This document shows positions 2,707 to 30,440 of a stretch of DNA of 64,000 nt, piece after piece (position 1 is the first letter of the stretch; each line of letters opens with the position of its first letter). The stretch comes from Chloroflexota bacterium (GTDB taxonomy: Bacteria > Chloroflexota > UBA11872 > VXOZ01), in assembly GCA_965221905.1 (NCBI GenBank), contig OZ244922.1:2688001-2752000 (forward strand), written 5' to 3'. Below the pieces are notes generated by a model. The model had not been told where the DNA came from. It ran no database searches and worked only from the letters and a program-made list of their open reading frames with translations. The position numbers and the translations under genes are program-made.

Positions 2707-3287
2707 GTTCCGCGCAATTCAAATTGCTTGCATACTATATATTCCGCTCCGTGGGGCTTCAGATCACTCTTCATGAGCGCAATACTCTCCACCGCCAGCG
2801 CAATTGCTGTGAAATCGCGTTGTGTCGTTGCCCAGTCCTCCAGCACCTGCTGCTCCCACGGTGCAATACCGTCACGCACGCGCGCAAGCGTGATATGGGG
2901 CGAGAGCGACCGAGCTTCTCGCACAAAACCGCTGTGTTCCAGCAGACGTTCCGCGCTTCCGTGCAGCCGCTGCAACTGCTCATCGGCGTCTGTCACGGTC
3001 GCCCAGACCATCTGCGGCTTTCTCCGCCTGCGCACAATCTTTATTCCTGTGACCGAAAGCGCAAAGGGCCGTGCTCCGGCCGCCACGCCCTCCATGGTGG
3101 TCACTATAGACGCTTTCCGTTCTGCCGACATCTCGCCAAAGAACTTAAGTGTAATGTGAATGTTCTCTCTTGGCACCCAACGCACGGAGAAGGTGCGTTG
3201 GGATACGAGACGCACACTCTCCCCTAACCGACTGCGAACACTCTCGGGCAAGGTAATTGCAAGGAAGAGCCGTTCGGTTTCCACCAA
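2703..3287 (-). CDS. thpR: RNA 2',3'-cyclic phosphodiesterase (2H phosphoesterase)
   Basis: RLFLAI start and two HxT motifs (HITLKFFG, PHITLAR). Confidence 0.9.
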   Translation of the reverse strand: MVETERLFLAITLPESVRSRLGESVRLVSQRTFSVRWVPRENIHITLKFFGEMSAERKASIVTTMEGVAAGARPFALSVTGIKIVRRRRKPQMVWATVTDADEQLQRLHGSAERLLEHSGFVREARSLSPHITLARVRDGIAPWEQQVLEDWATTQRDFTAIALAVESIALMKSDLKPHGAEYIVCKQFELRGT

Positions 3288-16339: not shown

Positions 16340-16470
16340 CGTTCCTTGGCACAAGAGGAATGTGGCAGTCGCACTTGGACCGCTTCTCGCTAGCCAAGGT
16401 GCAGAATTCCGTCATTCCCTGGCAAGAACACTATCCACTATCAGCGTGATTTCACTTGACTCTCAACACA

Positions 16471-16494
16471 GATACTCCCGCTTGCGCGGGAATG
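16471..16494. repeat. REP-like hairpin of the TCCCGC-N4-GCGGGA family (second copy at 56066-56089)
   Basis: gatactcccgcttgcgcgggaatg. Confidence 0.65.
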
Positions 16495-16522
16495 CATCTT
16501 CTGCTTTCTTGCTGCAAAACTC

Positions 16523-16573
16523 TTAGAGTACGGAGCAGCCTAGGTTGACCGCGGAGGCCACGCTGTCGCCGCG
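16523..16573 (-). pseudogene. 3'-end remnant of an eighth SBP-like lipoprotein paralog
   Basis: Minus frame reads RGDSVASAVNLGCSVL*, matching the paralog C-terminus RGDDVASAVNQGCSTL. Confidence 0.8.
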
Positions 16574-16650
16574 CTACGGTTGGCGAAATGTCTGGATAGT
16601 GTCGACAACGAAAATTAGCCAAGGAATCACGTCTACTCCCGTGCCGGTCC

Positions 16651-17922
16651 TCAGGCTTGTTGGTATTCACGCACGATGGAGCAGGCCTGGTTGACTACAG
16701 TCGCCACATCATCGCCGTCCACGAGAGCTTCTTCCAAATACCGGTTTGTACGCAGTTGCACCCCAGTCTGCGGCCAACCGCTTTCATGTTTCATAGACTG
16801 CTGTAGCGCGGTCACTTCTTCCGGTCGCAGGTCCTTCCGGGTCTCTCCTAGCATCGCTACCGCTTCTCTCTGTGCGGGCACAGTCACGTACTTCTGCATG
16901 ACGTTCGCCAGACCCCTCAGCGCTGAATACGCGGCCTCCGGGTTGGCGGTTCTCGCCGCAATCGCAATCCCGAAGTCTCCAAGCACCGGCACGGCGCGCA
17001 CCTTGCCGCGCGGGATCTCTGCCAGCCGGAAGTCGCCGTGGGACGGGCGCTTCGGGGCAAGACTGTAGACCATCGCCGGCGGCGTCCCCGACTCAAAGAT
17101 CAATTTCCCTAACTCTCTGTACAAAGCGGGCGAAACTCGATAGGTATGGAGTAGGTCGCGAAAGAACTGCAGGGCTTCAATCGCCGCCGGCTCCTGCAGC
17201 CGGCACTGCAACGTGTCCGGGTCTACCGCGTCCGCTTCGTTCTGCCAGAGCGCCCACCAGAGCCCATTGCTGTGTGTCGCCAGCCCCCAGCGCGCCACGG
17301 CGCCGTCTGCTCTCCGCTTCGTCAGCTTTGCCGCATTCGCCACCAGGGCATCCCAGTCCCAGTTGCTATCCACCGGCGGCACGCCCTCCCGCCGGAACTG
17401 TGCAGCATCATAGTAGAGCACCTGCGGGCGCACCCCTACCGGCAGGGCGTAGAGCGCGCCATTCGCTCGAAATTGGGAAAGTACATTGGGATAATACTCT
17501 TGCTCAATGTCAGGTCCATCGGTACCGCTGAACCGGTCCAGGGGCAAGAGTACCCCTCTTTCTCCTAGAGCCTGCGCATCATACGACGCCACCGTCACGA
17601 GGTCTGCTTCAAGGTCTTCCAGCAGTGCAGCATACTCATCCCAATGCGGAAACGTCCCGATTCGGCGCAGGGCAAGGCTGTAGCGGCCTTGTTCGAACCC
17701 ATAAGGATCATCTGCATCCTCTGCAAGCTCTGCCACTGCCTGTCGGTATTTCTCAAGAGGTCTCACCCCGTGTGTACCAGCGAGACTTGCAATCGAATCG
17801 GAGAACGCCAGATTCAAGCTTGTTTCTTGCAACGGGCCTGTCACCTTCGACTGAGAATCGAGGAAACCACAGCCCGTGGCGAGTAACGACGTGGCTATTA
17901 GCATGTTTCGGCGTGATAGCAT
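16651..17922 (-). CDS. Tat lipoprotein, extracellular solute-binding protein family 1-like (array copy 7)
   Basis: MLSRRNML Tat motif and LATGC lipobox; SBP motifs LLPLDRF, GALYALP, LYYD, WDWDAL; start set at MLSRR. Confidence 0.85.
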   Translation of the reverse strand: MLSRRNMLIATSLLATGCGFLDSQSKVTGPLQETSLNLAFSDSIASLAGTHGVRPLEKYRQAVAELAEDADDPYGFEQGRYSLALRRIGTFPHWDEYAALLEDLEADLVTVASYDAQALGERGVLLPLDRFSGTDGPDIEQEYYPNVLSQFRANGALYALPVGVRPQVLYYDAAQFRREGVPPVDSNWDWDALVANAAKLTKRRADGAVARWGLATHSNGLWWALWQNEADAVDPDTLQCRLQEPAAIEALQFFRDLLHTYRVSPALYRELGKLIFESGTPPAMVYSLAPKRPSHGDFRLAEIPRGKVRAVPVLGDFGIAIAARTANPEAAYSALRGLANVMQKYVTVPAQREAVAMLGETRKDLRPEEVTALQQSMKHESGWPQTGVQLRTNRYLEEALVDGDDVATVVNQACSIVREYQQA

Positions 17923-18038
17923 CTTCTTGCTCCTTCTCAGCGCCGTTTCACTGCTTGTCTGCGGCAAACTTCCTCGCGCACGAACCAGGCGATCTTTCAA
18001 TTGAATTCTAGGTGCGTTTGGGCTTCTTGCGCCGGATA

Positions 18039-18057
18039 GCGGGGAACAAGCCCCCGC
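18039..18057. repeat. REP-like hairpin GCGGGGG-N5-CCCCCGC between SBP paralogs
   Basis: gcggggaacaagcccccgc (one stem mismatch). Confidence 0.85.
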
Positions 18058-18135
18058 GCTGTGCTGGCTAGAGTGACAGTCTAGTGTTGACAAGGAGCAT
18101 CAGCCAAGGGTCGCCGTTTACTACCGAGCAGGGCT

Positions 18136-19448
18136 TTAGGCTTGCTGGTTCTCGTAGAATACAGTGCAGCCTTGATTGACCGCGGAGGTCACGTCGTCGC
18201 CGCGTGCGAGCGCCTCTACCAAGCGGAACATGGCACGGCGCTGCGCTATGTCATCAGGTCTCCCACGTCCGTATTCCATTGACTGTTGTATCGCCGTGAC
18301 CTCTTCCGGCTGGAGGTTTGGCTGGATCTGCCCGAGCCGCGCCACCGCCTCGCGCTCGCTAGGTACTCTGACATGCGGTTGCATGGTCTTCACAAGTCCC
18401 CTGAGCGCCATGTAGGCCGCCTCGGGATTGGCGGTTTGCGCGGCAATCGCAATCCCTGGGTAGGGATTGACCTGCGTGCTTGGCACCTTGCCCCGGGGTA
18501 GCTCTGCTCTACGATACTTGGCGCCAATCGCGAGGTAAAGGACAGGAAAATATATCATAGCCGGTGGGGATTCCAATGCACCATAGACAAACCTGTCCAG
18601 ATCATTTCCGGCGGCCGCGGGCGAGACAACATGGGTGTGCATCAAATCCCAAATGTACTCTCTAGCGCTTTGACGGCGGCCGGTTCCTGCAATCGGCATT
18701 GCGACGTTAGCGCGTCAGCTACCTCCGCTTCGTTCTGCCACAGCGCCCACCAAATTGAATAATCGTGCGCTATCAACCCCCAGCGCGTTACCGTGCCGTC
18801 CTCCTCACGCTGCGTCAGCCGCAGCGCGTTCTCAACCAGGACGTCCCAGTCCCAGCTACCGTCCGGCGGGGCCACCCCCATGCTTTCGAAATAGTCCGCA
18901 TCGAAAGAGAGCATCAGCGGATCCGCGCCTACCGGCAGAGCGTAGAGCGCGCCCTTCTCACGGTAATAATCAAGGACAGACGAATAGTATTCGCCACTGA
19001 GCCCGGACCCATCGCCGCTGAACCGGTCCAGGGGCAGCAATGCGCCCCGCTCCCCTAAGGCGCGCGCTTCGTCATGCCACACGGTCACGAGGTCCGCGCC
19101 AATTTCGTTCAGCCAGGATGCCAAGTGCTCGGGCTTGTAGAACTCCTCCGCTTCGGGATCCGAGTAGGGACCCGCGTAGCGCTCAAAGTATTGCAGTGAC
19201 AGGCTGTAGCGCCCGCGCGTGGGACCGAAGGCGCTGTCACTGTCTTCTGCTAGAATCCGCTCTATCCGCCGAAGTTTTTCCTCAGGCGACGCCACAAGGT
19301 GCCCAGGACCGAGACCGGTTATTATGTGCGAAACCCAAGTCAATGGGGTAATCTTCGGAGCGCCCAGCACCGGAAATGGAATATCCAGCCCGCCACAGCC
19401 GGCCGCGAGAACTGCCGTACTTCCAATCAACGTTCGGCGTGATAGCAT
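18136..19448 (-). pseudogene. Tat lipoprotein SBP-like paralog (array copy 6), frameshifted
   Basis: ORFs 18642-19466 and 18136-18699 join into one paralog if an extra AG (ctaGAGAGtac, ~18657-18662) is removed; could be a sequence error. Confidence 0.8.
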
Positions 19449-19565
19449 GACTTCCTTCCTTGCCATGAATCCTACATTCTCAAGACTGCAGGGCGCTCCC
19501 TAGTGCATAGACCAGCCCACCTCCCAACAGCTATCCCAGTTGGTTCATGCTTCTTGCGCCAGGCA

Positions 19566-19584
19566 GCGGGGGACAAACCCCCGC
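19566..19584. repeat. REP-like hairpin between SBP paralogs
   Basis: gcgggggacaaacccccgc. Confidence 0.85.
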
Positions 19585-19660
19585 GCTACGACTGGGGGAA
19601 TGGCGAGTTAGAGTTGGCAACGAGAACTAGCCAGTTCCCACGGCTAATTTTCGCTGACTC

Positions 19661-20941
19661 TCACGTCCGCTGGTTCTCGTAGAGGGTGGAGCAGCCTTGG
19701 TTGACTGCGGAGGCCACGTCGTCGCCGCGCACGAGCGCCTCCACCAGGTCGTACATAGCGCGATGCTGGGCCGGATCATGCGGCTCCGCGCGACCGTGTT
19801 CCATCGACTGCTGTATCGCCGTGACTTCTTCCGGTAGGAGGTCTGACCGGATCTGCCCAAGCCGCGCCACCGCTTCTCTCTCAGCGGGAATATAGACATG
19901 TGGCTGCATAGCGTGCACGAGTCCCCTGAGAGCCGTGTAGGCTGCTTCCGGCTTGGCAGTTTGCGCGACAATCGCGATTCCCGGATCGGTCCTGACCGGC
20001 ACGCTGCGTACTTTGCCCACGGGTAGCTCTGCCCGGCGATAATGGTCATACGGTGGCCCAATGGGGACCGGGCGATACACCATCGCAGGCGGCACTTTCC
20101 ACTCCCATTCCGCAGGAGAGACGCGGTGGGTGTGTATCAGGCCGCGGACATAATCCAAGGCTTCGATCGCTGCCGGTTCCTGGAGCAGACATTGTGAGGT
20201 AAGCGGGTCAATCATCTCGGTTTCGTTCTGCCAAAGCGCCCACCAAACAGAAAAGCCGTGTGCTGCCAGCCCCCAGCGCGACACTGTCCCGTCCTCCTCC
20301 CGCTGTGTCAGCTTGAGCGCGTTTTCCAGCAGGTCGTCCCAGTCCCAGCTACTGTCCGGCGGCACTACTCCCACCTGCGCAAAGTAGTCAACATCGTAGT
20401 AGAGCATCTGTGGGCCAGCGCCTATTGGCAGGGCGTAAAGCGCGCCGCTCTCTCGATTCGGATCAAGTACAGACGAGTAGAACTCCCCATTGAACCCAGA
20501 GCCATCGCCGCTGAACCGGTCCAAAGGCAGCAAGACGCCCATCTCCCCGAGCGCGCGCGCCTCGTCAGGCCACACGGTCACGAGATCTACGTCTACTTCA
20601 TCCAGCCACGCCGCCAAGTGCTCCACTTTGCGGAACTCCTGCGCAGCGGGATCAGAGTAGGATCCTGCGTAGCGCTCAACGTATTGCAGGGCAAGGCTGT
20701 AGCGCCCGCGCATGGGACCGAAGGGGTTTTCATCGTCATCCGCCAGTTTCCGCTCCATCCGTCGAAGCTTTTCCTCAGGCGGAAAGATACCGGGCCCAGT
20801 GCTGAAACCGGGAAGCGCGCGAGAGACCCAGGTCAATGGAGTGACCTTCGGAGTGCCTAGCTCTGGAAAGGAAAAATCCAGCCCGCCGCAGCCGGCCACC
20901 AGCACCGCTGTGCTTCCTATAAGCGTTCGGCGTGAAAGCAT
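19661..20941 (-). CDS. Tat lipoprotein SBP family 1-like (array copy 5)
   Basis: MLSRRTLIG Tat motif, LVAGC lipobox, SBP motifs; closest to copy 6. Confidence 0.87.
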   Translation of the reverse strand: MLSRRTLIGSTAVLVAGCGGLDFSFPELGTPKVTPLTWVSRALPGFSTGPGIFPPEEKLRRMERKLADDDENPFGPMRGRYSLALQYVERYAGSYSDPAAQEFRKVEHLAAWLDEVDVDLVTVWPDEARALGEMGVLLPLDRFSGDGSGFNGEFYSSVLDPNRESGALYALPIGAGPQMLYYDVDYFAQVGVVPPDSSWDWDDLLENALKLTQREEDGTVSRWGLAAHGFSVWWALWQNETEMIDPLTSQCLLQEPAAIEALDYVRGLIHTHRVSPAEWEWKVPPAMVYRPVPIGPPYDHYRRAELPVGKVRSVPVRTDPGIAIVAQTAKPEAAYTALRGLVHAMQPHVYIPAEREAVARLGQIRSDLLPEEVTAIQQSMEHGRAEPHDPAQHRAMYDLVEALVRGDDVASAVNQGCSTLYENQRT

Positions 20942-21058
20942 GACTTCCTTCCTTGCCGTGAATCCTACATTCTCAAGACTGCAGGGCGCTCCCTAGTGCA
21001 TAAACCAGTCCACCTCTCAACAGCTTTCCCAGTGGGTTTACGCTTCTTGCGCCTGGAA

Positions 21059-21077
21059 GCGGGGGACAGGCCCCCGC
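21059..21077. repeat. REP-like hairpin between SBP paralogs
   Basis: gcgggggacaggcccccgc. Confidence 0.85.
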
Positions 21078-21155
21078 GCTACGATTGGTGAAATGGCGGG
21101 CTAGTGTCGACAATCAGAATTAGCCAAGGAATCACGTCTACTCCCGTGCCTGTCC

Positions 21156-22466
21156 TCAGGCTTGTTGGTATTCACGCACGATGGAGCAGGCTTGATTCAC
21201 TGCAGTAGCAACATCGTCACCGCGTACGAGACCCTGAAGTGCTGAATCCATCGCAAATAACGCCGGGGCGCTTCGCGGCTGGGCGCGACCATGCTCCATG
21301 GACTGCTGAATCGCCAGGACCTCTTCAGTATGAAGGTCTGACCGTAATTCCTCGAGCCGTGCTACCGCATTTCTCTTTGCGGGAATTACCACATGCTGCT
21401 GCAAAGCGTCGACAAGACCCTTTAGTGCAATGTAGGCCGCCTCTGGCTTCTGTGTGCGCGCGACAATGCCAATCCCTAGGTCACCGTACACTGGAACGCT
21501 GTGCACTTTCCCCTGAGGCAACTTTGCTAGGTGGTAGTGTCCCGGCGGGCGTATGGGAGGACTGCTATACACCATGGCTGGCGCGAACCTTGCCGGCTCA
21601 AGAACGAGTTTCACTAAATCCATGTAGAGGAGCGCAGGAGAAACACGATGAGTGTGCAGCAGGCTGTGCACGAACTGCAGGGCTTCGACGGCGACCGGTT
21701 CCTGCAGCCGGCACCGCATCGTCTCCAGGTCAACCACGTCCGCCTCGTTCTGCCACAACGCCCACCAGAGTTGACTTCCATGCGCTGCCAACCCCCAGCG
21801 CAAGACTGAGCCATCCGCCCTTCGCTTTGTCAGCTTTAGCGCGCTTTCAACGAGATCATGCCAGTCCCAGATGCTGTCTACTGGCGGGGCAACATCCTCC
21901 AGCGCAAAGTAATCAACATCGTAGTAGAGCATCAGCGGACGTGCGTCGACCGGCAGGGCGTAGAGCGCCCCTTGCCGAAACTGCTCGAGCACACTTGGGT
22001 AGAATGCCTGTTCAAGGGCAAAGCTGTCGGATGAAATTAGCTGGTCTAGAGGCAGCAACACGCCTTCTTCCCCTAGCGCCCTTGCCCCCTCCGGTCCCAC
22101 AGTTACGAGGTCTGCCCCAAGATCGTGCAGCCATTGAACGAACTCTCCCTCGGCCAATTCCGGCAACTGTTCCACGTGGCGCAAAGTGAGGCGGTACTTT
22201 CCACGCTTCTGACCATAAGGGTTCTCTTCATCCTCCTCAAGGGCAGATACGGCCTCTTGGTATTTCTCCACAGGGCGGAGGCCTGCAATGGGATTCATAA
22301 GGCCAGGGAACCAGCTAAAGGTCACCCAGGTTAGCTCCGCCTCTTGTGGTGAGCTTGGCGCGGAAAAGAATGACCCAAGAGGACCACAACTGGCTGCGAG
22401 CACCGACGCGCCTCCGATCATGGTTCGGCGTGTTAGCCTGATTCTCCGGCGAAGTTCCATAGTCAC
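21156..22466 (-). CDS. Tat lipoprotein SBP family 1-like (array copy 4)
   Basis: LTRRTMIG Tat motif, LAASC lipobox, SBP motifs; start overlaps the stop of copy 3. Confidence 0.87.
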   Translation of the reverse strand: MTMELRRRIRLTRRTMIGGASVLAASCGPLGSFFSAPSSPQEAELTWVTFSWFPGLMNPIAGLRPVEKYQEAVSALEEDEENPYGQKRGKYRLTLRHVEQLPELAEGEFVQWLHDLGADLVTVGPEGARALGEEGVLLPLDQLISSDSFALEQAFYPSVLEQFRQGALYALPVDARPLMLYYDVDYFALEDVAPPVDSIWDWHDLVESALKLTKRRADGSVLRWGLAAHGSQLWWALWQNEADVVDLETMRCRLQEPVAVEALQFVHSLLHTHRVSPALLYMDLVKLVLEPARFAPAMVYSSPPIRPPGHYHLAKLPQGKVHSVPVYGDLGIGIVARTQKPEAAYIALKGLVDALQQHVVIPAKRNAVARLEELRSDLHTEEVLAIQQSMEHGRAQPRSAPALFAMDSALQGLVRGDDVATAVNQACSIVREYQQA

Positions 22467-23718
22467 CCACCCGATGGACCACCTGTTTGCTGGTACTCCC
22501 GCAAAACGGAACAGGCCTGGTTGACCACGGTTGAAACGTCTTCGCCCCGTACCAGACCCTCTGCTATCGCACTCATGGCGTACAACTCCGGCTTGCCTTG
22601 CGGCAGTCGCGGCATCTCCCGTTCAGCCGCCATGGAACGCTGAATTGCCTGGATTTCGTCGGAGCGGATGCCGGGCTGAAATTCTCCGAGCCGTTCGATT
22701 CCGTCCCTGGTTGCGGGCACGGTGGCATGCCGCTGCATGGCGTGCACCAGACCCTGGAGGGCCGTATAGGCCGTCTCAGGACTTTGTGTTCCCGCGGCGA
22801 TAGCAAGCCCAACGCCTGCCCTCACCGGCACGGCCTGCGTCTTGCCTTGGGGAATCTGAGCCAAACCGTACGAGCCAAAACTCGGGCGCAGCGGCGGGTT
22901 ATTGTAGACCATAGCCGGTGGCGGGGTCACCTTCATCAAATCCATGCCGAGAGCAAGTGGCGACACCTGCAAGGTGTGCAGGAGTTTCCACACAAATTGC
23001 AGCGCTTCGATTGCGGCCGGTTCCTGCAAACGACACTGCAACGCTGCCGGGTCCGCTACGTCCGCATCGTTTTGCCACAGCGCCCACCAGAGCTTACTAT
23101 GCGCCCGCAATCCCCAACGCCGCACTACGCCGTCTTGCCCGCGATTAGTTAGCTTCGCCGCATTTTCTGCCAGTTCGTCCCAGCCCCAACTGCTGTCAAC
23201 CGGCGGCACTCCCCGCTGTGCGAAATACACTCTGTCGTAATAGACCATCACGGGCAAGGCGCTAACCGGCAGCGCATAGAGCGCCCCTTGCGCCCGAAAC
23301 TGATTCAGTACCCCCGGAAAGAACACCGCGTTGAGCGCACTTTCATTGGCGTCGCTGAACCGATCCAGAGCATGCAACACCCCCATTTCCCCAGTAACCT
23401 TGCCTCCTCCACGGACACTGTGAGCAGGTCCGCCTTGAGCTCGTGCCATGCATCCACGTCGTCCCAGCGGGGCGCCTGCTGTATAGCGCGAACTTGGAGA
23501 CGGTAACGCCCGCCCGGCGGGCCAAGCGGATTCGCTGGGTCTTCATTTAGGGCGTCGACTATTTGCTGCTGATTGCCAATGCCGAGGAATGGCCTCCAGA
23601 CCCACACGAGCTCAGTCTCGTGGAGCGTGACCGGTCCGGACACTAGCGACTCAAGCTGACCGCAGCCAACGGCACATAGGGCTGCCGCGCTGACTGTCAA
23701 CGCTCGGCGTGAAAGCAT
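22463..23718 (-). pseudogene. Tat lipoprotein SBP-like paralog (array copy 3), frameshifted
   Basis: ORFs 23305-23718 and 22463-23449 join as RLLGEMGVLH if one base is added to the 4-nt G/C run at 23389-23392; could be a homopolymer sequence error. Confidence 0.8.
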
Positions 23719-23835
23719 GACTTCCTTCCTTGCCGTGAATCCTACATTCTCAAGTCTGCAGCGTGCTCCCTAGACCAATAACCAGTTCACCTCTCAACAG
23801 CTTTTCCAGTGGGTTTACGCTGCTTGCGCCAGGAA

Positions 23836-23854
23836 GCGGGGGACAAGCCCCCGC
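23836..23854. repeat. REP-like hairpin between SBP paralogs
   Basis: gcgggggacaagcccccgc. Confidence 0.85.
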
Positions 23855-23932
23855 GCTACGATTGGTGAATTGGCGGGATTGTGTCGACAACGAAAATTAG
23901 CCAAGGATTCACGTATACTCCCGTGCCGGTCC

Positions 23933-25204
23933 TCAGGCTTGTTGGTATTCACGCACGATGGAGCACGCTTGGTTGACTACAGTCGCCACATCATCGCCGT
24001 TCACGAGAGCTTCAACTAAATATCTATCTGCACGTAATTGCACCCCTGTTTGCGGCCAACCGCTTTCATGTTTCATAGACTGCTGTAGCGCGGTCACTTC
24101 TTCCGGTCGCAGGTCCTTCCGGGTCTCTCCTAGCATCGCTACCGCTTCTCTCTGTGCGGGCACAGTCACGTACTTCTGCATGACGTTCGCCAGACCCCTC
24201 AGCGCTGAATACGCGGCCTCCGGGTTGGCGGTTCTCGCCGCAATCGCAATCCCGAAGTCTCCAAGCACCGGCACGGCGCGCACCTTGCCGCGCGGGATCT
24301 CTGCCAGCCGGAAGTCGCCGTGGGACGGGCGCTTCGGGGCAAGACTGTAGACCATCGCCGGCGGCGTCCCCGACTCAAAGATCAATGTCCCTAACTCTCT
24401 GTACAAAGCAGGCGAAACTCGATAGGTATGGAGTAGGTCGCGAAAGAACTGCAGGGCTTCAGTCGCCGCCGGCTCCTGCAACCGGCACCGCAACGTGTCC
24501 GGATCTACCACGTCCGCTTCGTTCTGCCAAAGCGCCCACCAGAGCCCATAGTTGTGAGTCGCCAGCCCCCAGCGCGCCACGGCGCCGTCTGCTCTCCGCT
24601 TCGTCAGCTTTGCCGCATTCGCCACCAGGGCATCCCAGTCCCAGTTGCTATCCACCGGCGGCACGCCCTCCCGCCGGAACTGTGCAGCATCATAGTAGAG
24701 CACCTGCGGGCGCACCCCTACCGGCAGGGCGTAGAGCGCGCCATTCGCTCGAAACTGGTCGAGCACATTGGGATAATACTCTTGCTCAATGTCAGGTCCA
24801 TCGGTACCGCTGAACCGGTCCAGGGGCAAGAGCACCCCTCTTTCTCCTAGAGCCTGCGCGCCATACGACCCCACCGTCACGAGGTCCGCTTCAAGGTCTT
24901 CCAGCAGTGCTGCATACTCATCCAAACCCGGCCACGTACCGACTCGCCGCAGGGTAAGGCTATAGCGGCCTTGTTCGAACCCATAAGGATCATCTGCATC
25001 CTCTGCAAGTTCTGCCACTGCTTGCCGATATTTCTCAAGAGGTCTCACCCCGTGTGTGCCAGTGAGACTTGCAATCGCATCGGAAAACGCCAGATTCAAG
25101 CTTGTTTCTTGCAACGGGCCTGTCACCTTCGCCTGAGACTCGAGAAAGCCGCAGCCAGCGGCAAGCGCCGCTGTACTTCCAATCAGCGTTCGGCGTGAAA
25201 GCAT
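23933..25204 (-). CDS. Tat lipoprotein SBP family 1-like (array copy 2)
   Basis: MLSRRTLIG Tat motif and LAAGC lipobox; same length (1272 nt) as, and near-identical to, copy 7. Confidence 0.87.
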   Translation of the reverse strand: MLSRRTLIGSTAALAAGCGFLESQAKVTGPLQETSLNLAFSDAIASLTGTHGVRPLEKYRQAVAELAEDADDPYGFEQGRYSLTLRRVGTWPGLDEYAALLEDLEADLVTVGSYGAQALGERGVLLPLDRFSGTDGPDIEQEYYPNVLDQFRANGALYALPVGVRPQVLYYDAAQFRREGVPPVDSNWDWDALVANAAKLTKRRADGAVARWGLATHNYGLWWALWQNEADVVDPDTLRCRLQEPAATEALQFFRDLLHTYRVSPALYRELGTLIFESGTPPAMVYSLAPKRPSHGDFRLAEIPRGKVRAVPVLGDFGIAIAARTANPEAAYSALRGLANVMQKYVTVPAQREAVAMLGETRKDLRPEEVTALQQSMKHESGWPQTGVQLRADRYLVEALVNGDDVATVVNQACSIVREYQQA

Positions 25205-25320
25205 CTTCCTGCTCCTTCTCGGTGCCGCTTCTTCTCTTGTCCGCGGCGTACTTCCTCGCGTACGAACCAAGCGATCTCTCAAGGGAATCCTAAGTGAGTT
25301 TGGGCTTCTTGCGACGGATG

Positions 25321-25349
25321 GCGGGAGGGGGGGGGGGACAAGCCCCCGC
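25321..25349. repeat. REP-like hairpin with an expanded G11 run
   Basis: gcggga-G11-acaagcccccgc. Confidence 0.8.
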
Positions 25350-25409
25350 GCTGCGCTGGCTAGGATGACAGTTTAGTGTTGACAAGGAGCATCAGCCAAC
25401 GGTCGCCGT

Positions 25410-26675
25410 TTACTCCTGCGTCTTCCCACCTGTTTGCTGGTACTCACGCAAGAGGGAACAGGCCTGGTTGACGACCGTCGACACGTCGTCACCGCGCACA
25501 ATTCCCTCTACTAGTGCTGCCATGGTGTAGAGTTCCGGCGCGCCCTGCGGCATACGTGGCATCTCGCGTTCGGCTTCCATTGACCTTTGAATTGCCGTCA
25601 CTTCCTCCGGCCTCAATCCCTTTTGGAACTCCCCAAGCCTTTCAATTGCTTCTCTCGCTGCGGGCACAGCGGCATGCCGTTGCATGGCATGCACCAGACC
25701 CTTCAGCGCCGTGAAGGCTACATCAGGCTTCTCAGTATTTGCGGCAATACCGACTCCCACGCCCGCCCTCACGGGTACAGCACGCACTTTGCCATGAGGG
25801 ATCTCTGCCAAGCGGTAGGAGCCATAATTCGGACGTAAAGGGGGATTTGTATAGACTATGGCTGGCGGCGGAGTCATCCTCACTAAGTCCATATTGAGAA
25901 GGGGAGGCGAAACTCGGTCTCTATGCAGTAGCCCGCTCACGAATTGAATGGCTTCTACAGCGGCTGGTTCTTGAAGCCGACACTGCAATGTTCGACTGTC
26001 AACCATCGCCGCTTCGTTCTGCCACAATGCCCACCAGATTTGACTATGTGCCGACAATCCCCAACGCCGCACGACGCCATCTTCCCCACGATCAGTCAGT
26101 TTCATCGCGTGGCGTGCAAGCTCATCCCAACTCCAATTCCCCTGCACTGGCGAAACCTGCTTCAGGGCAAAGTAGTCAACGTCGTAGTACACCATCAATG
26201 GCAATGCACTTGCGGGCAGCGCGTAGAGCGAGCCCTGTGCCTGAAACTGATTGAGCACACCCGGAAAGAAGGCCGAGTTGAGCGCAGCCCTATCAGTGCC
26301 ACTGAACCGCTCCAGTGGCAGCAGCACTCCGTTCTCCCCCAATACCTTCGCCTCTTCCGCCGACACGGTTAGCAAGTCCGCCTCAAGACCGCGCCATGCA
26401 TTTAGATCATCCCAGCTTGGCGCAAGAGCCAAGTTGCGCAGCTTAAGTCGGTAGCGTCCCCGCTGTGAGCCTTCAGGGTTCTCATCGTCTGCGGCGAGCG
26501 TAGCAATTATCTGCTGCGGATCATCAAGTCCAACTAGCCGCCGCGAGACCCAGGTAAGTTCAGTCTCTTTGGGCACGCTCGGCCCGGAAATAAGTGACTC
26601 GAGTGGGCCGCAGCCGACAGCAGCAAACGCCGAAGCGCTGGCCATCATTACTCGGCGTGAGAGCATAGTATTCAT
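25410..26675 (-). CDS. Tat lipoprotein SBP family 1-like (array copy 1)
   Basis: MLSRRVMM Tat motif, AAVGC lipobox, SBP motifs; closest to copy 3. Confidence 0.87.
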   Translation of the reverse strand: MNTMLSRRVMMASASAFAAVGCGPLESLISGPSVPKETELTWVSRRLVGLDDPQQIIATLAADDENPEGSQRGRYRLKLRNLALAPSWDDLNAWRGLEADLLTVSAEEAKVLGENGVLLPLERFSGTDRAALNSAFFPGVLNQFQAQGSLYALPASALPLMVYYDVDYFALKQVSPVQGNWSWDELARHAMKLTDRGEDGVVRRWGLSAHSQIWWALWQNEAAMVDSRTLQCRLQEPAAVEAIQFVSGLLHRDRVSPPLLNMDLVRMTPPPAIVYTNPPLRPNYGSYRLAEIPHGKVRAVPVRAGVGVGIAANTEKPDVAFTALKGLVHAMQRHAAVPAAREAIERLGEFQKGLRPEEVTAIQRSMEAEREMPRMPQGAPELYTMAALVEGIVRGDDVSTVVNQACSLLREYQQTGGKTQE

Positions 26676-26848
26676 CCTAGATTTACGGTTTTGGATTCTT
26701 GCTGCATCCTTTCATCCGATTCGCAGCCAAGAAACCGCAGAGTGCCCAAGAAAATGTCGATGTCTACTCCTGGGCACTCCGCAAGTCCCCTCAGCCCTCC
26801 TTCCACTCGCATTTTAAGGAGAGAAGCAATCTACCAGAATGCGCTTTG

Positions 26849-27169
26849 TCAACTGCACGAAATGCACCCTACTAAGGTGACTTCATTGTGGCAGGCCCCT
26901 CCTGAGAGGCAGTGAACTCCTGTTCGCACGTGGTACCTGCCTTTGTCGTTACCGCAGCCATGGTCGCCGCAGAAGCCATTAATGTGGTAGCTACCCGTCT
27001 CGCAGAAATAGGGTCCCACACAATGATTGTCGGCAGAAACTCCTACAGCAGCGAGACCGGTGAGCACGGCAGCGCCTGTGGTGGCGCGCACCAGTCTTCC
27101 CAGAAATCCGCGTCGGTTCATGCTGGCCTTTGCCAGGCCGACACTCGCATTCGCAAATAGCTTATCCAT
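26849..27169 (-). CDS. Small Tat-exported Cys/His-rich protein with MauA-like leader (106 aa)
   Basis: GGGAGG RBS before MDKLF; NRRGFL twin-Arg motif; VSA|D cleavage site; 60-aa mature part with 8 Cys, 6 His, 0 Trp; occupies the mauA position after mauE-mauD. Confidence 0.85.
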   Translation of the reverse strand: MDKLFANASVGLAKASMNRRGFLGRLVRATTGAAVLTGLAAVGVSADNHCVGPYFCETGSYHINGFCGDHGCGNDKGRYHVRTGVHCLSGGACHNEVTLVGCISCS

Positions 27170-27271
27170 GGGTTTACCTCCCATGCTTTGCATGCATTGC
27201 GTCTGTGATGCGACTATCGCGTGGGACATCTTTACACTTGGTGTTCGGGTTCCACGCTCTGTGCGCGGATG

Positions 27272-27844
27272 TCACACGCTCTCATTCTTTGGCAAGCTGC
27301 CGGTCGTCACATCAGTAGCGAGCAGCTCGCCTAGCACATGCACATCGTTCACCACCCCCTTTCCAGCGATTTTGCCATCGGCATCGACCACGAAGCCGTA
27401 CGGCGTCCAACTACTGCCGTACAAGTCGGCTATCTCATGCTCCTGCTGGATCACCAGCGGACACGAGAGCTTGAATTCTGCAATCATCTCTTGGTTCTGC
27501 TCACGGCTGCCGCCGCTTACGAGCACCAAGCGCGCGCCTTGTTCCTCAATGCTGTTCATTTCCCCATTCAGGCTCGCGAACAGTTCCTTGCAGGGCGGGC
27601 AGGTGGGATGAACGAAGAGCACCAACAGCCGCTCGCCAGCCATGGTCTCCAGGTCAACCGCCCCATTGAGACCCTCTCCTTGGAAGAGCGGCGCTTTGTC
27701 ACCGACCGCGATACCGTTCTCGCGCTCTTCCCCGACGCGTAGGCGCAACTCGCCAATCTGCCGCATGAGGCCAATGACGACGAAGGTGAGCAGGCCCATG
27801 AGGACCCATTGCAGTAGGTACGATGCCAGCCAGATGCCTTCCAT
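27272..27844 (-). CDS. MauD-like membrane-anchored thioredoxin-fold (TlpA/redoxin) protein
   Basis: N-terminal TM followed by RQIGEL, VGDKAP, FVHPTCPPCKEL, TPYGFVVD; AGGAGG RBS before MEGIWL. Confidence 0.85.
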   Translation of the reverse strand: MEGIWLASYLLQWVLMGLLTFVVIGLMRQIGELRLRVGEERENGIAVGDKAPLFQGEGLNGAVDLETMAGERLLVLFVHPTCPPCKELFASLNGEMNSIEEQGARLVLVSGGSREQNQEMIAEFKLSCPLVIQQEHEIADLYGSSWTPYGFVVDADGKIAGKGVVNDVHVLGELLATDVTTGSLPKNESV

Positions 27845-27887
27845 GCCTCTTGCCTCCTGATCCACTTTGGCGACCGGTTGCCGTTGA

Positions 27888-27936
27888 TGCTTCGACCCTT
27901 CGACAAGCTCAGGACAGGCAACCTCAGCACGAACGG
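27888..27936. repeat. Nested REP-like elements of the CTTCGACAAGCTCAG family
   Basis: tgcttcgac[ccttcgacaagctcaggacaggc]aacctcagcacgaacgg; the outer part is the reverse complement of the 60742 repeat with one mismatch. Confidence 0.8.
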
Positions 27937-27986
27937 ATCCGCGCATGCTCACCATAGTGTGTTAGAGCCTAGCCCCTCCGCCCCGC

Positions 27987-28015
27987 CTGGATTCCGGCTT
28001 GCGCCGGAACGACGG
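27987..28015. repeat. REP-like hairpin TTCCGGC-N4-GCCGGAA
   Basis: ctggattccggcttgcgccggaacgacgg. Confidence 0.65.
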
Positions 28016-28029
28016 ATAGTTGCTTTCCT

Positions 28030-28620
28030 TCAATATGATTGGGGAATAGTGCGCAGCCGCAGCAATTCGGCGGCGACGAAGGCCACCGCCCACGCCCCGA
28101 TCACGAACAAGGCAACCCCTGCCACGCTGCTGGCGTCCCCAGTGAGACCGACCTCCACTAGCCAAGTTGCACCGGCAGTGGGCGCCAGGAGTACAAGCAA
28201 TGTCAGGATGACGACCTGCTTGATGATGGTGGCTTTGCCCAGCGGCTGACGGCCCGCGCCGAAGCAGTAGCAGTCGATCCCGCCCCGGCCCTGTGCTAAC
28301 GCCACGGACGAGGCTACGATGAAAGCTACCACCAGGATTACGCCCAACCACACACCCCATGCCACGGCAAAGCCCGTGATGAGCAAAGTGCCACAGAGGA
28401 GTTCCAATACGGGGATCGCGCCACTCACCGGCTGGAGCGCGCGCACCGGCACGAGACCAAATCCCTGCACCGCCGCTTTGAAATCGGACAGGTGCAGCAA
28501 CTTGGCGGCGGCAGCCAGGAGAAAAACGCCACCCACCAGGAATTGGAGCACGAGCACGCCAGTTGCAAGCATTAGCCCGTTCCTTCCAGATCGGGAGGGA
28601 CCTTTTGGCATATCCTCCAC
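28030..28620 (-). CDS. MauE/DoxX family membrane protein
   Basis: VFLLAAAAKL, IPVLELLCG, GIDCYCFG (cf. MauE IDCGCFG); about 5 TM helices. Confidence 0.88.
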   Translation of the reverse strand: MEDMPKGPSRSGRNGLMLATGVLVLQFLVGGVFLLAAAAKLLHLSDFKAAVQGFGLVPVRALQPVSGAIPVLELLCGTLLITGFAVAWGVWLGVILVVAFIVASSVALAQGRGGIDCYCFGAGRQPLGKATIIKQVVILTLLVLLAPTAGATWLVEVGLTGDASSVAGVALFVIGAWAVAFVAAELLRLRTIPQSY

Positions 28621-28681
28621 GATCTCTCTCCCAACCCACTTTTAGCGTCATTATTGACTAGCACTGTTATGTCATACATGC

Positions 28682-28709
28682 ATGCTAGCACATAATAATA
28701 ATGTGTCAA
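28682..28709 (-). promoter_or_regulatory. Candidate sigma70 promoter of the mauE-like operon with a palindrome in the spacer
   Basis: Minus strand TTGACA, 16 bp, (TGc)TAGCAT; CACAT-N7-ATGTG at 28689-28705; locally AT-rich. Confidence 0.55.
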
Positions 28710-28864
28710 TAGTTAAATGAACTAACTCTTGAGATTCCGTGAGATACTGCACGTTCTCAGATAAGAACGCGGTTGCTCACCTTGCAAGAATGGTGGGCAT
28801 GCGGGGATCCGGCGCCCAGGAGATCAGCGAGGGGGTAACAGCGCCTTGAGCCAAGCGCTTGAGG

Positions 28865-29662
28865 CTATGCCTCTAGCTGTGGCGGGGGAAGGAGCTGAGT
28901 GATGTGCGACATGGCGGCGTCTACGTGGCGCTTGCCGTCCTGCAGCGAGAAGCTCCCGTGGCCGGGGAATAACTGCGTGAATTCCAGCTCAGCAAAGCGC
29001 TTTACGGTGGCGATGGACTCCTCAAGCGAGCAATCCCAGATGTTCTGGAGAATGATGCGGCCGCCAGAAAAGAGGGCATCGCCGCTGAAGAGAGCGCGGT
29101 GTGCGCCGCCTCCGCGTTGCGCGCCGCCTCCTCGTTGCGGGCAGTCTTCGCGTTGCGCGCAGTCGTCAACAAGGAATGCCAGGTGGCCGCGGCTATGGCC
29201 GTCGGCTTTCAAAACCGTCACAGTGAGCGACCCAACGTTGATGACGTCGCCATCCGCAGCAGCGGTCGCGGACGCCACCGGCCGCAAGCGGTTTTCTAAC
29301 GGATACATGCCTGTTTGACGCGCGGCAACCAGGCTCGCCGCCTCTTCATCACCGGTCTCGAGCCAGCCGGCAACGTCCTGGGAAGCGATTATTTCGGCGC
29401 CACATAATTGCTGCAACTCCGCGGCGCCACCGGCATGATCGAGGTGCAGGTGCGTGACGAATATCTTGGAAATGTCACGGGGATCGAAACCGGCGGCCTC
29501 AATCTGTGCCGCTATCGCCGGTGTGTCCCTGCCGACGCCGGTATCGATGAGGGCCAGTTCCGATCCTCCGTCGAGCAGATAGACGTGGCAATCGAGCGGG
29601 TCGGTGAGGCTAAAACCGCTTTGGCCGCTGCCAACAAGATGAACGATATTCGTGAGTTGCAT
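28865..29662 (-). CDS. Metallo-beta-lactamase fold hydrolase
   Basis: LIDTG, THLHLDHAGG, GHSRGH, FSGD, FPGHG. Confidence 0.88.
   Translation of the reverse strand: MQLTNIVHLVGSGQSGFSLTDPLDCHVYLLDGGSELALIDTGVGRDTPAIAAQIEAAGFDPRDISKIFVTHLHLDHAGGAAELQQLCGAEIIASQDVAGWLETGDEEAASLVAARQTGMYPLENRLRPVASATAAADGDVINVGSLTVTVLKADGHSRGHLAFLVDDCAQREDCPQRGGGAQRGGGAHRALFSGDALFSGGRIILQNIWDCSLEESIATVKRFAELEFTQLFPGHGSFSLQDGKRHVDAAMSHITQLLPPPQLEA
29096..29164. repeat. 18-bp tandem repeat (~4 units) inside the MBL gene
   Basis: Encodes DCAQRE/DCPQRG/GGAQRG/GGAHR. Confidence 0.8.
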
Positions 29663-29739
29663 GAGTCGACACCCTCTGTGTAGACATCCTTGCAAAACTC
29701 GTCTAAACGAGCGGGATTGGACTGCATTGACTAGGATTC

Positions 29740-29782
29740 ACCCTCACCCTAGCCCTAGCCCTCTCCCTCAATTGAGAGGGGA
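29740..29782. repeat. REP-like element of the CCCTCACCCT-CCCTCTCCC-GAGAGGG family (second copy 63101-63133)
   Basis: ccctcaccctagccctagccctctccctcaattgagagggga. Confidence 0.65.
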
Positions 29783-29826
29783 TACTAGACCACCGCCCCA
29801 CGCTATGCAAGGAATTCCTATAGTTT

Positions 29827-30336
29827 TCAACGTCGGATAAGCCGGAAAAGGACGTAAATGAGGCCGATAACGAGACCGCAGATCGCCGCGCCGCGTGTAT
29901 CGAGGAGTGTATTGACGTTTCCGTTCACGCGACCGCCAATCACCACCACACTTGCCACCTGCTCCGCCTCGATCTGCCCGCCGACAATCCATTGCGATAC
30001 CGAGTAGTTCGTATCCACACTGCCGCCGACCACCAGCCACGTCGCCCCTTCTGTCACGCTCACTTCATGGCCGGCCGCGATTCCTGTCAGGCCCTGCTGC
30101 AGCGACGCAGCCTCCGCTTGCACGACTCCGGTAGCCGTATTCTGCATGTCAATATCATCGGCGACCACGTGCCGCACGAGACTATTCGCAATTTGGAAAC
30201 GCTCGTCTACTTCCGTTGCGTCTCCGGCAGCGTCTTGCACGCCGTCACCCATTGCTTCTCTAGAGACGTCTTCCGAAACGTCATTGTCTACCGGCACTTG
30301 CCCCGGCTGCACCTCAGAAGACCCCATATTGGGCAT
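29827..30336 (-). CDS. Hypothetical protein with acidic N-terminus and C-terminal membrane anchor
   Basis: GAAGGG RBS-like sequence upstream; short beta-rich repeats; TM helix followed by RLIRR. Confidence 0.6.
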   Translation of the reverse strand: MPNMGSSEVQPGQVPVDNDVSEDVSREAMGDGVQDAAGDATEVDERFQIANSLVRHVVADDIDMQNTATGVVQAEAASLQQGLTGIAAGHEVSVTEGATWLVVGGSVDTNYSVSQWIVGGQIEAEQVASVVVIGGRVNGNVNTLLDTRGAAICGLVIGLIYVLFRLIRR

Positions 30337-30440
30337 CCCTTCTTCTCAACAGTTTTTCTTGCCGCTGCTCTCGCGCGTTCTTACAGGCCACCCCTCTCAC
30401 TCTATGATAGCAGCCCAACATAAGTGCAGAGAGAAAACCG

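Follow-up and report, generated by a model that had tools for sequence, protein, structure and literature searches.

The window, by which we mean the whole 64,000-nucleotide stretch of DNA analyzed here, encodes a small cysteine-rich protein that we read as an exported disulfide miniprotein, folded by a dedicated MauE/MauD pair and partnered with a binding lipoprotein; we put the probability of this explanation as a whole at roughly 60%. According to this explanation, the 46-residue twin-arginine-type leader would carry the protein across the membrane and would be cut after V-S-A. The MauD-like thioredoxin (CPPC), anchored in the membrane, would then join the eight cysteines of the core into four disulfides and would itself be re-oxidized by MauE (CXC), acting like a quinone-linked DsbB. 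MauE and MauD would form a private oxidative-folding pair beside the general DsbB of the genome, and the miniprotein and the lipoprotein may constitute a polymorphic ligand/partner pair, such as effector and immunity protein or ligand and receptor. The features concerned are as follows.

27169..26849, minus strand: precursor gene of the Cys-rich miniprotein, an ORF of 106 aa plus stop.
27032..27169, minus strand: leader, residues 1-46, near-invariant in 33 sequences.
26852..27031, minus strand: mature 60-aa core with 8 invariant Cys and a predicted three-stranded antiparallel beta-sheet.
27177..27182, minus strand: putative ribosome-binding site GGGAGG, 7 nt 5' of ATG 27169, read from the sequence.
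27272..27844, minus strand: mauD-like thioredoxin gene, 190 aa, product membrane-anchored with a CPPC motif.
28030..28620, minus strand: mauE, 196 aa, product with four predicted membrane helices and a C-Y-C motif.
28682..28709, minus strand: promoter-like site TTGACA-16-TAGCAT (TG-extended) upstream of mauE, a consensus match only.
25410..26675, minus strand: cognate sugar-type solute-binding lipoprotein gene, directly downstream of the peptide gene, with a Tat/lipobox signal.
16651..25282, minus strand: six additional paralogs of the binding-lipoprotein gene, of which two carry frameshifts (18136-19466 and 22463-23718).
16400..28800, minus strand: the whole block of mauE, mauD, peptide gene and seven lipoprotein genes, present or absent as one unit.
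15161-16339 and 28865-29695: the flanks of the block, an M20 peptidase gene and a metallo-beta-lactamase-fold gene, respectively.

The ORF of the original prediction, which had been given without a strand, was found exactly as described when the minus strand was read, with an ATG at 27169 and a stop codon at 26851..26849. Its 106-residue translation divides into a leader (residues 1-46, ending AVGVSA) and a core (residues 47-106). An alternative in-frame ATG upstream, at 27229, would give a product of 126 residues. It is an unlikely start because GGGAGG is found 7 nt before ATG 27169, because all 32 homologues begin M-D/G-K/T-L, and because the stretch upstream lies in a different frame at a paralogous locus; ribosome-binding site, homologue starts and reading frame thus all favor 27169. 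Among the copies, the region from -60 to -1 upstream of the gene is 76-92% conserved. Judged from its sequence, the ORF is well beyond chance expectation, since it has 32 homologues (E 1e-55 to 6e-12), since each of the 19 aligned cores retains all eight Cys and since three paralogues are present in its own genome. One contig from an RNA library (X17) is identical over 26796-27058, but such contigs carry no strand or level information and the match is no proof of transcription. Four metatranscriptome runs contain parts of the region as contigs, with the peptide gene covered by X17 only; parts of the region that lack contig cover are uninformative. An Rfam search of 26000-30500 found nothing near threshold.

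The leader begins with a conserved N-region of 17 residues. Next come the twin-arginine motif N-R-R-G-F-L-G, unchanged across 33 sequences, then a hydrophobic segment and finally an A-x-A site (VSA followed by D). The precursor scored 15.9 bits with the TIGR01409 twin-arginine model, just below the cut-off of 16.7, and we infer a twin-arginine-type signal with predicted Tat export and a predicted cleavage site. The leader has the look of an export signal, not of a recognition sequence cut by a dedicated protease. The leader had been described as MauA-like, and at the profile level this description is borne out. With hhalign, the family matched an alignment of 40 MauA sequences with 90.9% probability (E 1.1e-6), peptide residues 2-39 being paired with MauA residues 8-44. 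An HMM built on MauA leaders ranked the three peptide copies 1, 3 and 5 (16.0-17.1 bits) of 51,703 ORF segments in the genome. All 107 long Tat-like signals of the same genome scored below these three leaders, the best at 15.0 bits, so that the margin over it is 1-2 bits, and the other 106 at 9.9 bits or less. The N-region by itself has a weak similarity to the MauA N-region (z 2.6; the observed score was reached in 44 of 2000 permutations). An HMM of the MauA N-region alone did not retrieve the peptide from its own genome and gave only E values of 0.4-0.8 on 30 Chloroflexota loci. The likeness to MauA therefore appears to be carried mainly by the RR and hydrophobic parts. The Tat system normally transports folded proteins; by analogy with MauA, oxidation of the core is assumed to take place after export.

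In the window copy, the core has Cys at positions 4, 10, 21, 26, 41, 47, 56 and 59, the last two forming a terminal CxxC, together with six His and no Trp. The eight cysteines emphasized in the original prediction, invariant as noted above, are a property of the family. The six histidines also emphasized there are not, H3 of the core being the only one conserved in at least 90% of the 19 aligned cores. The mature parts of 52 unique members contain 8 (22 members), 10 (27), 12 (1), 14 (1) or 9 (1) Cys, an even number in all except one. Where the first extra pair of Cys occurs, both are present together (18 of 18 cases); the second extra pair occurs together in 11 cases, and in 3 more there is a single Cys and a scaffold Cys has been lost. 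Such paired acquisition of extra Cys points to disulfides rather than to metal binding. With this paired gain and the parity of the Cys number, a core of 60 residues held by four predicted disulfide bonds, as had been proposed, is most likely.

The other proposal, a Cys/His metal-binding peptide of a metallochaperone or metallophore-like kind, whose reduced thiols would hold Cu, Zn or Ni, draws on the 8 Cys and 6 His of the window copy and on a conserved H-C near the N-terminus, after which many members have S-H-H or S-H-F. It fits poorly with a family in which one His is conserved, in which 51 of 52 members have an even number of Cys and the extra Cys co-occur in pairs, whose neighboring enzymes are, by homology, thiol oxidases, and whose core is confidently modeled as a beta-sheet scaffold. 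We consider metal binding improbable.

The AlphaFold2 model of the core (pLDDT 91.3, pTM 0.70) predicts a compact three-stranded antiparallel beta-sheet in which a fixed Cys scaffold would carry a hypervariable surface. Foldseek searches with this model gave no significant fold match (best E 1.9). Laterosporulin was in the list at E 1.9 with TM scores of 0.28-0.31, which are insignificant. The best VIA result was an unrelated chain (Z 4.4, rmsd 2.5 over 44 residues). The defensin or knottin fold that had been suggested for the family thus found no counterpart in either search. Like disulfide-rich bacteriocins and knottin-like miniproteins, the window family is small and is predicted to be secreted, to have multiple disulfides and to vary at its surface while the Cys frame stays fixed, but it has no sequence or fold match to them. 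When the full-length model was used, the list was dominated by the low-confidence helical leader. The methylamine dehydrogenase light chain was absent from all fold-search lists, which does not by itself exclude a relation. There was no usable match to the core in the ESM Atlas, and a PDB sequence search with the family profile gave insignificant matches to Tat signals of nitrous-oxide reductase (E 0.9) and to a pollen allergen (E 5.5).

The pattern of a conserved leader on a hypervariable core, also anticipated, is clear: the leader is near-invariant in 33 sequences, and DNA identity of the core between copies averages 48%. All 8 Cys codons are nonetheless kept. In the core, synonymous sites have reached saturation (mean pS 0.78). 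These observations bear on the view that the ORF is non-functional and conserved merely through the close kinship of the genomes, which might be taken from the confinement of the family to one genus and from one copy elsewhere that has a stop in the RR motif. Besides the divergence around fixed Cys codons, the ribosome-binding site before the ORF and the confident fold prediction argue against this view, to which we give almost no credence. No claim for diversifying selection on the core is possible, since synonymous sites are saturated and comparison of dN/dS between leader and core gave finite values in 62 of 190 pairs, of which 2 were close enough to judge.

The products of mauE and the adjacent thioredoxin gene were compared with known proteins. 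The mauE product scored 80.7 bits against PF07291 (cut-off 27), which places it in the MauE family; it is 28% identical to Paracoccus MauE, with its C-Y-C aligned to C-G-C of the latter. The C-Y-C motif is followed by F-G, in agreement with the MauE consensus given in a preprint (bioRxiv 10.64898/2026.03.05.709764). According to the same preprint, MauE is a DsbB-like oxidase that can replace DsbB in E. coli and that requires the CXC motif. A tblastn search of plasmids with the window MauE found no match, and the Paracoccus mau cluster was compared by accession. The mauD-like ORF is open to 27955; its likely start is the ATG at 27844, with AGGAGG upstream. Its product matched AhpC-TSA (7e-17) and is 30% identical to Paracoccus MauD from end to end (E 8e-20), with the N-terminal anchor and the CxxC aligned. 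Against the TIGR02661 MauD equivalog model, it scored 67.1 bits, below the cut-off of 188.6. Because of this low score, despite the end-to-end identity, we class the thioredoxin by sequence as MauD-like and not as a MauD equivalog. The promoter-like site upstream of mauE came from a consensus scan that found 2 sites where 1.4 were expected.

All three MauE copies of the genome adjoin a copy of the peptide gene; a frameshift and a TAA stop have disrupted two of the three. A DsbB gene is located elsewhere in the genome. Among 17 genomes of the genus, 10 have both MauE and peptide, none has MauE without peptide, 2 have peptide without MauE and 5 have neither; since they come from one genus, these counts are not independent. 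The association of the peptide with MauE and MauD is thus seen directly, both in gene adjacency and in co-occurrence. From this co-occurrence it may be suggested that MauE and MauD recognize the leader.

The order mauE-mauD-small gene, all on one strand, is shared with the mau cluster on plasmid 1 of Paracoccus denitrificans PD1222, in which the small gene is mauA. Both the MauA precursor and the window peptide are small, Cys-rich and exported (for the window peptide, by prediction), and their long twin-arginine-type leaders, with 23 and 17 residues before RR, respectively, are similar at the profile level. The mature window peptide has 60 residues and 8 Cys, compared with about 131 residues and 12 Cys in MauA, with no detectable relation between them, and the gene downstream of the window peptide encodes a sugar-type binding lipoprotein. 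The TTQ (tryptophan tryptophylquinone) cofactor of MauA is formed from two conserved Trp, which are invariant in the MauA alignment as W83 and W114. The window peptide lacks this pair, and no Trp column is conserved in the 19 cores.

These comparisons bear on a decayed or miniaturized MauA, that is, the remnant of a quinoprotein small subunit that has lost its cofactor or carries another cross-link and works with a large subunit. The identical position after mauE and mauD, the MauA-like leader and the small, Cys-rich, presumably exported product would all be expected of such a remnant. However, the peptide has no match to Pfam PF02975 (Me-amine-dh_L) at E <= 0.1, the core alignment matched the 40-sequence MauA alignment with a probability of 0.3% in hhalign, and Trp is missing from the window copy. 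In addition, neither MauA nor MauG (PF03150, MauG/CCP; the control was detected in 4 genomes) was found in the 99.6%-complete genome. MauB (PF06433) was not found there either, in a search whose control was detected nowhere and which therefore lacks a positive control, and no amicyanin is annotated or seen near the locus. A profile search of 1.84 billion proteins gave 12 matches, of which 11 were family members or fragments and one was a spurious repeat protein (P0040); none was MauA. We therefore hold a decayed or miniaturized MauA to be very improbable. The original prediction that the peptide is not a TTQ-forming MauA agrees with these data.

The gene directly after the peptide gene encodes a binding lipoprotein in 23 of 23 copies. 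In the window this cognate lipoprotein matches SBP_bac_1 (8.8e-10) and, in profile comparison, an arabino-oligosaccharide binding protein (8e-19). Tandem units consisting of a 3' remnant of mauD, a peptide gene and a lipoprotein gene exist. Sequence identities of core and lipoprotein are correlated (Mantel r 0.70, a value reached in 0 of 5000 permutations), although co-variation of adjacent genes can arise from linkage alone. No permease genes are found among the six further lipoprotein genes (16651..25282). The genes flanking the block are direct neighbors in 4 of the 5 congeners without the peptide; the block is a single insertion or deletion between congeners. Taken together, the sequences make it most likely that the miniprotein acts outside the cell with the cognate lipoprotein as its predicted partner.

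The same arrangement could be read differently: MauE and MauD might serve the neighboring lipoproteins or be a second general folding system, the miniprotein being just another client or a structural subunit of the lipoprotein. Consistent with this, the mature lipoproteins retain, apart from the lipobox Cys, two Cys that never vary, the block that comes and goes as a unit includes them, and MauE is treated and argued for as a generalist in the MauE passages of the preprint (bioRxiv 10.64898/2026.03.05.709764). On the other hand, lipoproteins of this family occur without the peptide in about 22 copies in the same genome, at several sites far from any MauE, and also in all 5 congeners that lack both peptide and MauE. 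MauE, moreover, is never found without the peptide in the genus (0 of 10), and across the Chloroflexota it recurs beside Cys-rich ORFs rather than beside binding proteins. Service to the lipoproteins or to proteins in general is thus unlikely, if the least far-fetched of the other readings, and we continue with the miniprotein as the dedicated client.

As in the DsbA/DsbB pair and in MauE oxidase, the putative folding system of the window combines a membrane protein having a redox Cys pair (CXC) with a thioredoxin-fold partner (CxxC). It differs from the generalist MauE described in the preprint (bioRxiv 10.64898/2026.03.05.709764) in that it is additional to a DsbB, is variable within the genus and is tied to one client gene. 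Another parallel is provided by candidates from Streptomyces found with decRiPPter, in which mauE, once together with mauD, adjoins the gene of a small precursor containing 8 or more Cys (PMC7794033). As described in that paper, the genomes have no other mau genes, the authors propose that the enzymes modify the precursor, and the mauE families are presented as predicted candidates only. Their precursors differ from the window peptide in measuring 57-66 aa overall and in having short leaders without a twin-arginine motif; the families belong to another phylum, and the account given of them reports no binding-lipoprotein partner (PMC7794033). With regard to the RiPP criteria, the window family has a conserved leader and a variable core, and no modification other than disulfide formation by MauE and MauD suggests itself. 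In a full-text literature search, MauE was discussed together with RiPPs only in the decRiPPter paper and its preprint, and literature searches found no relevant work that combined MauE with cysteine-rich proteins or MauA with twin-arginine signals.

The peptide family was found in 12 of 17 genomes of a single Chloroflexota genus and in none of 81 genomes from other genera of the same class. A metagenome scan with the most divergent member found nothing, and a scan with the family alignment found 5 loci, all of which were generic 'MNRRGFLG' Tat signals on unrelated proteins, with no MauE.

MauE and MauD are much more widely spread than methylamine dehydrogenase, and therefore most of their clients are not known. 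The locus offers a clean and small candidate for such a client: a single precursor is accompanied by two enzymes and a promoter-like site. The close association with a lipoprotein that diversifies along with the peptide, in cassettes that vary, suggests a system of interaction at the level of strains in this uncultured lineage. A broader idea, which we offer tentatively and with more doubt than confidence, is that the long MauA-type leader marks a general, unrecognized route in which MauE and MauD privately fold many unrelated Cys-rich cores, MauA being the first known client. In this genus the route might have given rise to polymorphic miniprotein/lipoprotein pairs in cassettes of variable copy number, used for recognition or competition between strains. 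As a search rule, a MauA-leader profile applied beside mauE leads to unrelated Cys-rich proteins. If the rule holds, it would be a source of natural disulfide-rich miniproteins plus their folding enzymes, and the long leader of MauA would be explained as a trait common to the client class.

The leader-model search beside mauE that had been recommended with the original prediction does work in other Chloroflexota: in 10 of 30 MauE loci, the MauA-leader HMM led to unrelated ORFs rich in Cys, where Cys-rich means at least 12 Cys in an ORF among the top leader-HMM matches. ORF segments with at least 12 Cys make up only 23 of 1401 in the 30 loci. The peptide belongs to a wider class that has hardly been described. 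Some of the other MauE neighbors match knottin-type Pfam models, as in the case of L039, which scored 50.9 bits against Toxin_29 (cut-off 25).

The peptide gene agrees with the original prediction in its ORF, its leader and core, and its Cys layout. On the minus strand, an ORF running from ATG 27169 to a stop at 26851..26849 encodes a 106-aa precursor, with a leader of residues 1-46 and a core of residues 47-106 (60 aa) that has 8 Cys, 6 His and no Trp. This start is favored over an in-frame ATG at 27229, since GGGAGG lies 7 nt 5' to it, the same initiating Met is found in all homologues, and at a paralogous locus the stretch 5' to the peptide gene is in another frame. The product is best read as an exported four-disulfide miniprotein with a MauA-type leader, encoded in the slot of mauA and provided with its own MauE/MauD folding pair. 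The genes concerned are as follows.

28620..28030, minus strand: mauE (PF07291, 80.7 bits, cut-off 27; C-Y-C-F-G motif)
27844..27272, minus strand: mauD-like thioredoxin gene (N-terminal membrane anchor, CPPC motif)
27169..26849, minus strand: peptide gene
25410..26675, minus strand: cognate binding lipoprotein gene

A promoter-like site was identified upstream of mauE. One metatranscriptome run contains a 264-nt contig identical to 26796-27058, which places the organism in the RNA library and is no proof of transcription; the same run holds contigs identical or nearly identical to the adjacent lipoprotein gene. A short dispersed repeat (27881-28046) lies in the gap separating the stop of mauE from the start of mauD; on it RNA-library contigs pile up to a summed depth of at most 2675, with many loose ends into other contexts. 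Because of this repeat, the mauD ORF seems to extend 37 codons beyond its probable length.

The mauE and mauD-like genes are directly upstream of the peptide gene on the same strand. In Paracoccus denitrificans the annotated order is mauB-mauE-mauD-mauA, and thus the peptide gene occupies the mauA slot. The window MauE is 28% identical to that of P. denitrificans, with the CXC motifs aligned; the mauD-like protein is 30% identical to MauD end to end and, at 67.1 bits, falls under the MauD equivalog cut-off of 188.6. Two MauE proteins are reported to substitute for DsbB in E. coli, the CXC motif being required, and MauA to occur in just ~10% of MauE-bearing species (bioRxiv 10.64898/2026.03.05.709764). 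In the window's genome DsbB is encoded elsewhere and VKOR was not found. Each of the three MauE copies in this genome adjoins a peptide copy. Those at two further peptide-bearing loci, L004 (7415-7952) and L005 (10125-10691), are broken by a frameshift in one case and an in-frame TAA in the other, so the window's MauE is the sole intact copy; the mauD and peptide genes beside the broken copies are intact. MauE and the peptide occur together in 10 genomes of the genus, MauE without the peptide in none, the peptide without MauE in two, and neither in five, counts from closely related, non-independent genomes. One genome has an additional MauE at 1.27 Mb with no peptide match within ~700 kb (the nearest at 1.99 Mb).

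The claim that the peptide is not a TTQ-bearing MauA was upheld. It matches neither PF02975 nor TIGR02659, its core aligns to the MauA profile with 0.3% probability, and the two Trp invariant in MauA have no counterpart in the peptide cores. A PF02975 match (E <= 1) is missing from the window's genome, as is a MauG/CCP domain, the control for the latter working; the genome gave no MauB match either, in a search whose control was silent.

With a single MauA sequence as query, no significant likeness to the peptide was detected. An alignment of 40 MauA precursors, chosen among 120 matches listed of 220 found, was then compared with the peptide family using hhalign; residues 2-39 were placed on MauA 8-44 with 90.9% probability (E 1.1e-6). 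In column permutations, the score of the twin-arginine and hydrophobic part was reached in none of 2000 (z 8.9) and that of the N-region alone in 44 of 2000; at z 2.6, likeness of the N-region by itself is not established. As a specificity control, a MauA-leader-only HMM was run against every six-frame segment of 40 aa or longer in the window's genome (51,703 in total). The three peptide copies ranked 1, 3 and 5 (16.0-17.1 bits), and ranks 2 and 4 resemble non-coding frames. Of the long segments, 107 carry a Tat-like motif; a single one of these scored 15.0 bits and the other 106 at most 9.9 bits. This ranking indicates that the peptide leader is nearer in sequence to that of MauA than are the genome's other Tat signals; the best of those trails it by a small margin.

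Family members have an almost invariant leader and a core that varies outside its Cys residues. Over 23 peptide copies, mean DNA identity was 0.82 in the 100 nt upstream (mauD 3' end or remnant), 0.74 in the intergenic stretch, 0.75 in the leader and 0.48 in the core. All eight core Cys are invariant in the 19 aligned cores, and H3 is the one His conserved at 90% or more. For 52 unique full-length members (the fragmentary or frameshifted family rows P0027 and P0033 were left out), the mature part has 8 Cys in 22, 10 in 27, and 12, 14 and 9 in one each. Two pairs of columns hold extra Cys. Both members of the first are present together in 18 of 18 cases; those of the second occur together in 11, and three further sequences with a single Cys there are without one scaffold Cys, so that the total is still eight. 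Such parity is the pattern of disulfide-bonded proteins, as read from the sequences, and speaks against the thiolate metal site that had been offered as an alternative. From the core alignment, AlphaFold2 gave a confident model of a three-stranded antiparallel sheet (pLDDT 91.3, pTM 0.70), for which no convincing solved relative was found with Foldseek (best E 1.9) or an exhaustive VIA search (best Z 4.4). One mosaic pair was seen, L004 8764-9108 and L012 6001-6306 (another peptide-bearing locus), in which the core DNA is 99% identical and the leaders just 86% (leader dS 0.58 vs core dS 0.02), suggesting recombination near the leader/core junction.

Searching 5.8 billion proteins with a word index yielded 32 homologues of 87-124 aa (E 1e-55 to 6e-12), of which one has a public name, being annotated as hypothetical in a Chloroflexota MAG. 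When 1.84 billion representatives were scanned in full by HMMER using the family profile, just 12 matches came back, 11 of them family members or fragments and one a spurious repeat protein; MauA was not among them. In whole genomes, the family was found in 12 of the 17 of one GTDB genus, including the window's own, and in none of the 81 drawn from the class's remaining 19 genera. Copies per genome range from 0 to 8; the window's genome, a single 3.52-Mb contig at 99.6% completeness, has three. In a congener, one peptide copy (L009 6001-6309) has TGA in the place of the first twin-arginine codon and is likely a pseudogene.

In all 23 distinct peptide copies (the window's and 22 others), a Tat/lipobox SBP_bac_1-type lipoprotein gene lies ~150-530 nt downstream. 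The profile of the cognate lipoprotein matches an arabino-oligosaccharide binding protein (8e-19). Upstream of the peptide gene, 14 of the 23 copies have a mauD gene, mostly full-length (that of L008 is 5'-truncated, that of L013 is split by an insertion and that of L007 is cut by the locus edge); seven have just a 28-40-codon mauD 3' remnant, and form tandem units of remnant, peptide and lipoprotein(s); two have neither. Of the seven lipoprotein genes in the window array, two carry frameshifts; the array is free of permease genes. A metallo-beta-lactamase-fold gene and an M20 peptidase gene flank the 12.5-kb block (~16400..28800, minus strand) and are directly adjacent in four of five peptide-less congeners, which argues that mauE, mauD, peptide and lipoproteins were gained or lost together. 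Core and cognate lipoprotein identities are correlated (Mantel r 0.70, reached in 0 of 5000 permutations), a correlation that linkage alone could yield, and in 13 of 19 cases the closest core and the closest lipoprotein belong to the same pair. The peptide probably acts together with this co-inherited binding lipoprotein. An obligatory link is another matter: the lipoprotein subfamily occurs in every one of the genus's 17 genomes, the five peptide-less ones among them, which counts against it. The window's genome has ~22 lipoprotein copies, many distant from any peptide gene, and at E <= 1e-60 the subfamily is absent from the 81 genomes of other genera.

This binding-lipoprotein expansion is genus-restricted; its sites in the window's genome are window 16651-26675 and 943-948 kb, 1095-1103 kb, 1565 kb and 3500 kb, with no adjacent permease genes. 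An 82-nt conserved element with a terminal GGGGG-ACAAG-CCCCC hairpin follows each binding-lipoprotein gene, with copies at 25333-25414 and at 16556, 18041, 19568, 21061 and 23838 that are 61-93% identical. The metallo-beta-lactamase-fold gene at 28865-29695, which carries an insertion rich in Gly and Arg, and a 169-aa ORF at 29827-30336 that belongs to no known family are kept beside the block and also in genomes without it, and so are probably outside the system.

The peptide family is new and genus-restricted, and belongs to a broader, barely described class of MauE-linked Cys-rich clients. MauE was found in 89 of 401 sampled Chloroflexota genomes, a tally that takes in the unpublished genomes G228 and G301, used for that count alone. 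Thirty MauE loci of other Chloroflexota were examined over 1.5 kb on each side (1401 ORF segments), and the best matches to the MauA-leader HMM were nearly all Cys-rich. An ORF with at least 12 Cys was among the top matches in 10 of the 30 loci (L038, L039, L040, L046, L047, L048, L051, L058, L061 and L062); this Cys count is reached by just 23 of all 1401 segments. An N-region of the F-D-E-L-T-R-x-L-A-x-S-T-S-R-R type recurs in several such ORFs and by eye resembles the MauA consensus more than the window's leader does; the cores of these ORFs are unrelated to one another and to the window's core. Three candidate families from Streptomyces that include mauE, and in one case mauD too, had already been reported by decRiPPter; the precursors contain 8 or more Cys, like the window peptide, but short leaders with no twin arginines (PMC7794033). 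A full-text literature search returned no further paper connecting MauE with RiPP precursors.

Among the MauE loci of other Chloroflexota, L039 encodes a 247-aa protein with knottin-type repeats (2058-2798, minus strand; Pfam Toxin_29, 50.9 bits), and L046 three tandem 100-aa precursors, two of which, scanned with Pfam, match a conotoxin-type model only under the cut-off. L061 has a Stig1-like protein. At L062 MauE is joined in one protein with a Tat signal and a tail rich in Cys, at L051 a fusion protein has a PqqD-like domain preceding its Tat signal and Cys-rich part, and L055 holds a 475-aa fragment with 100 Cys.
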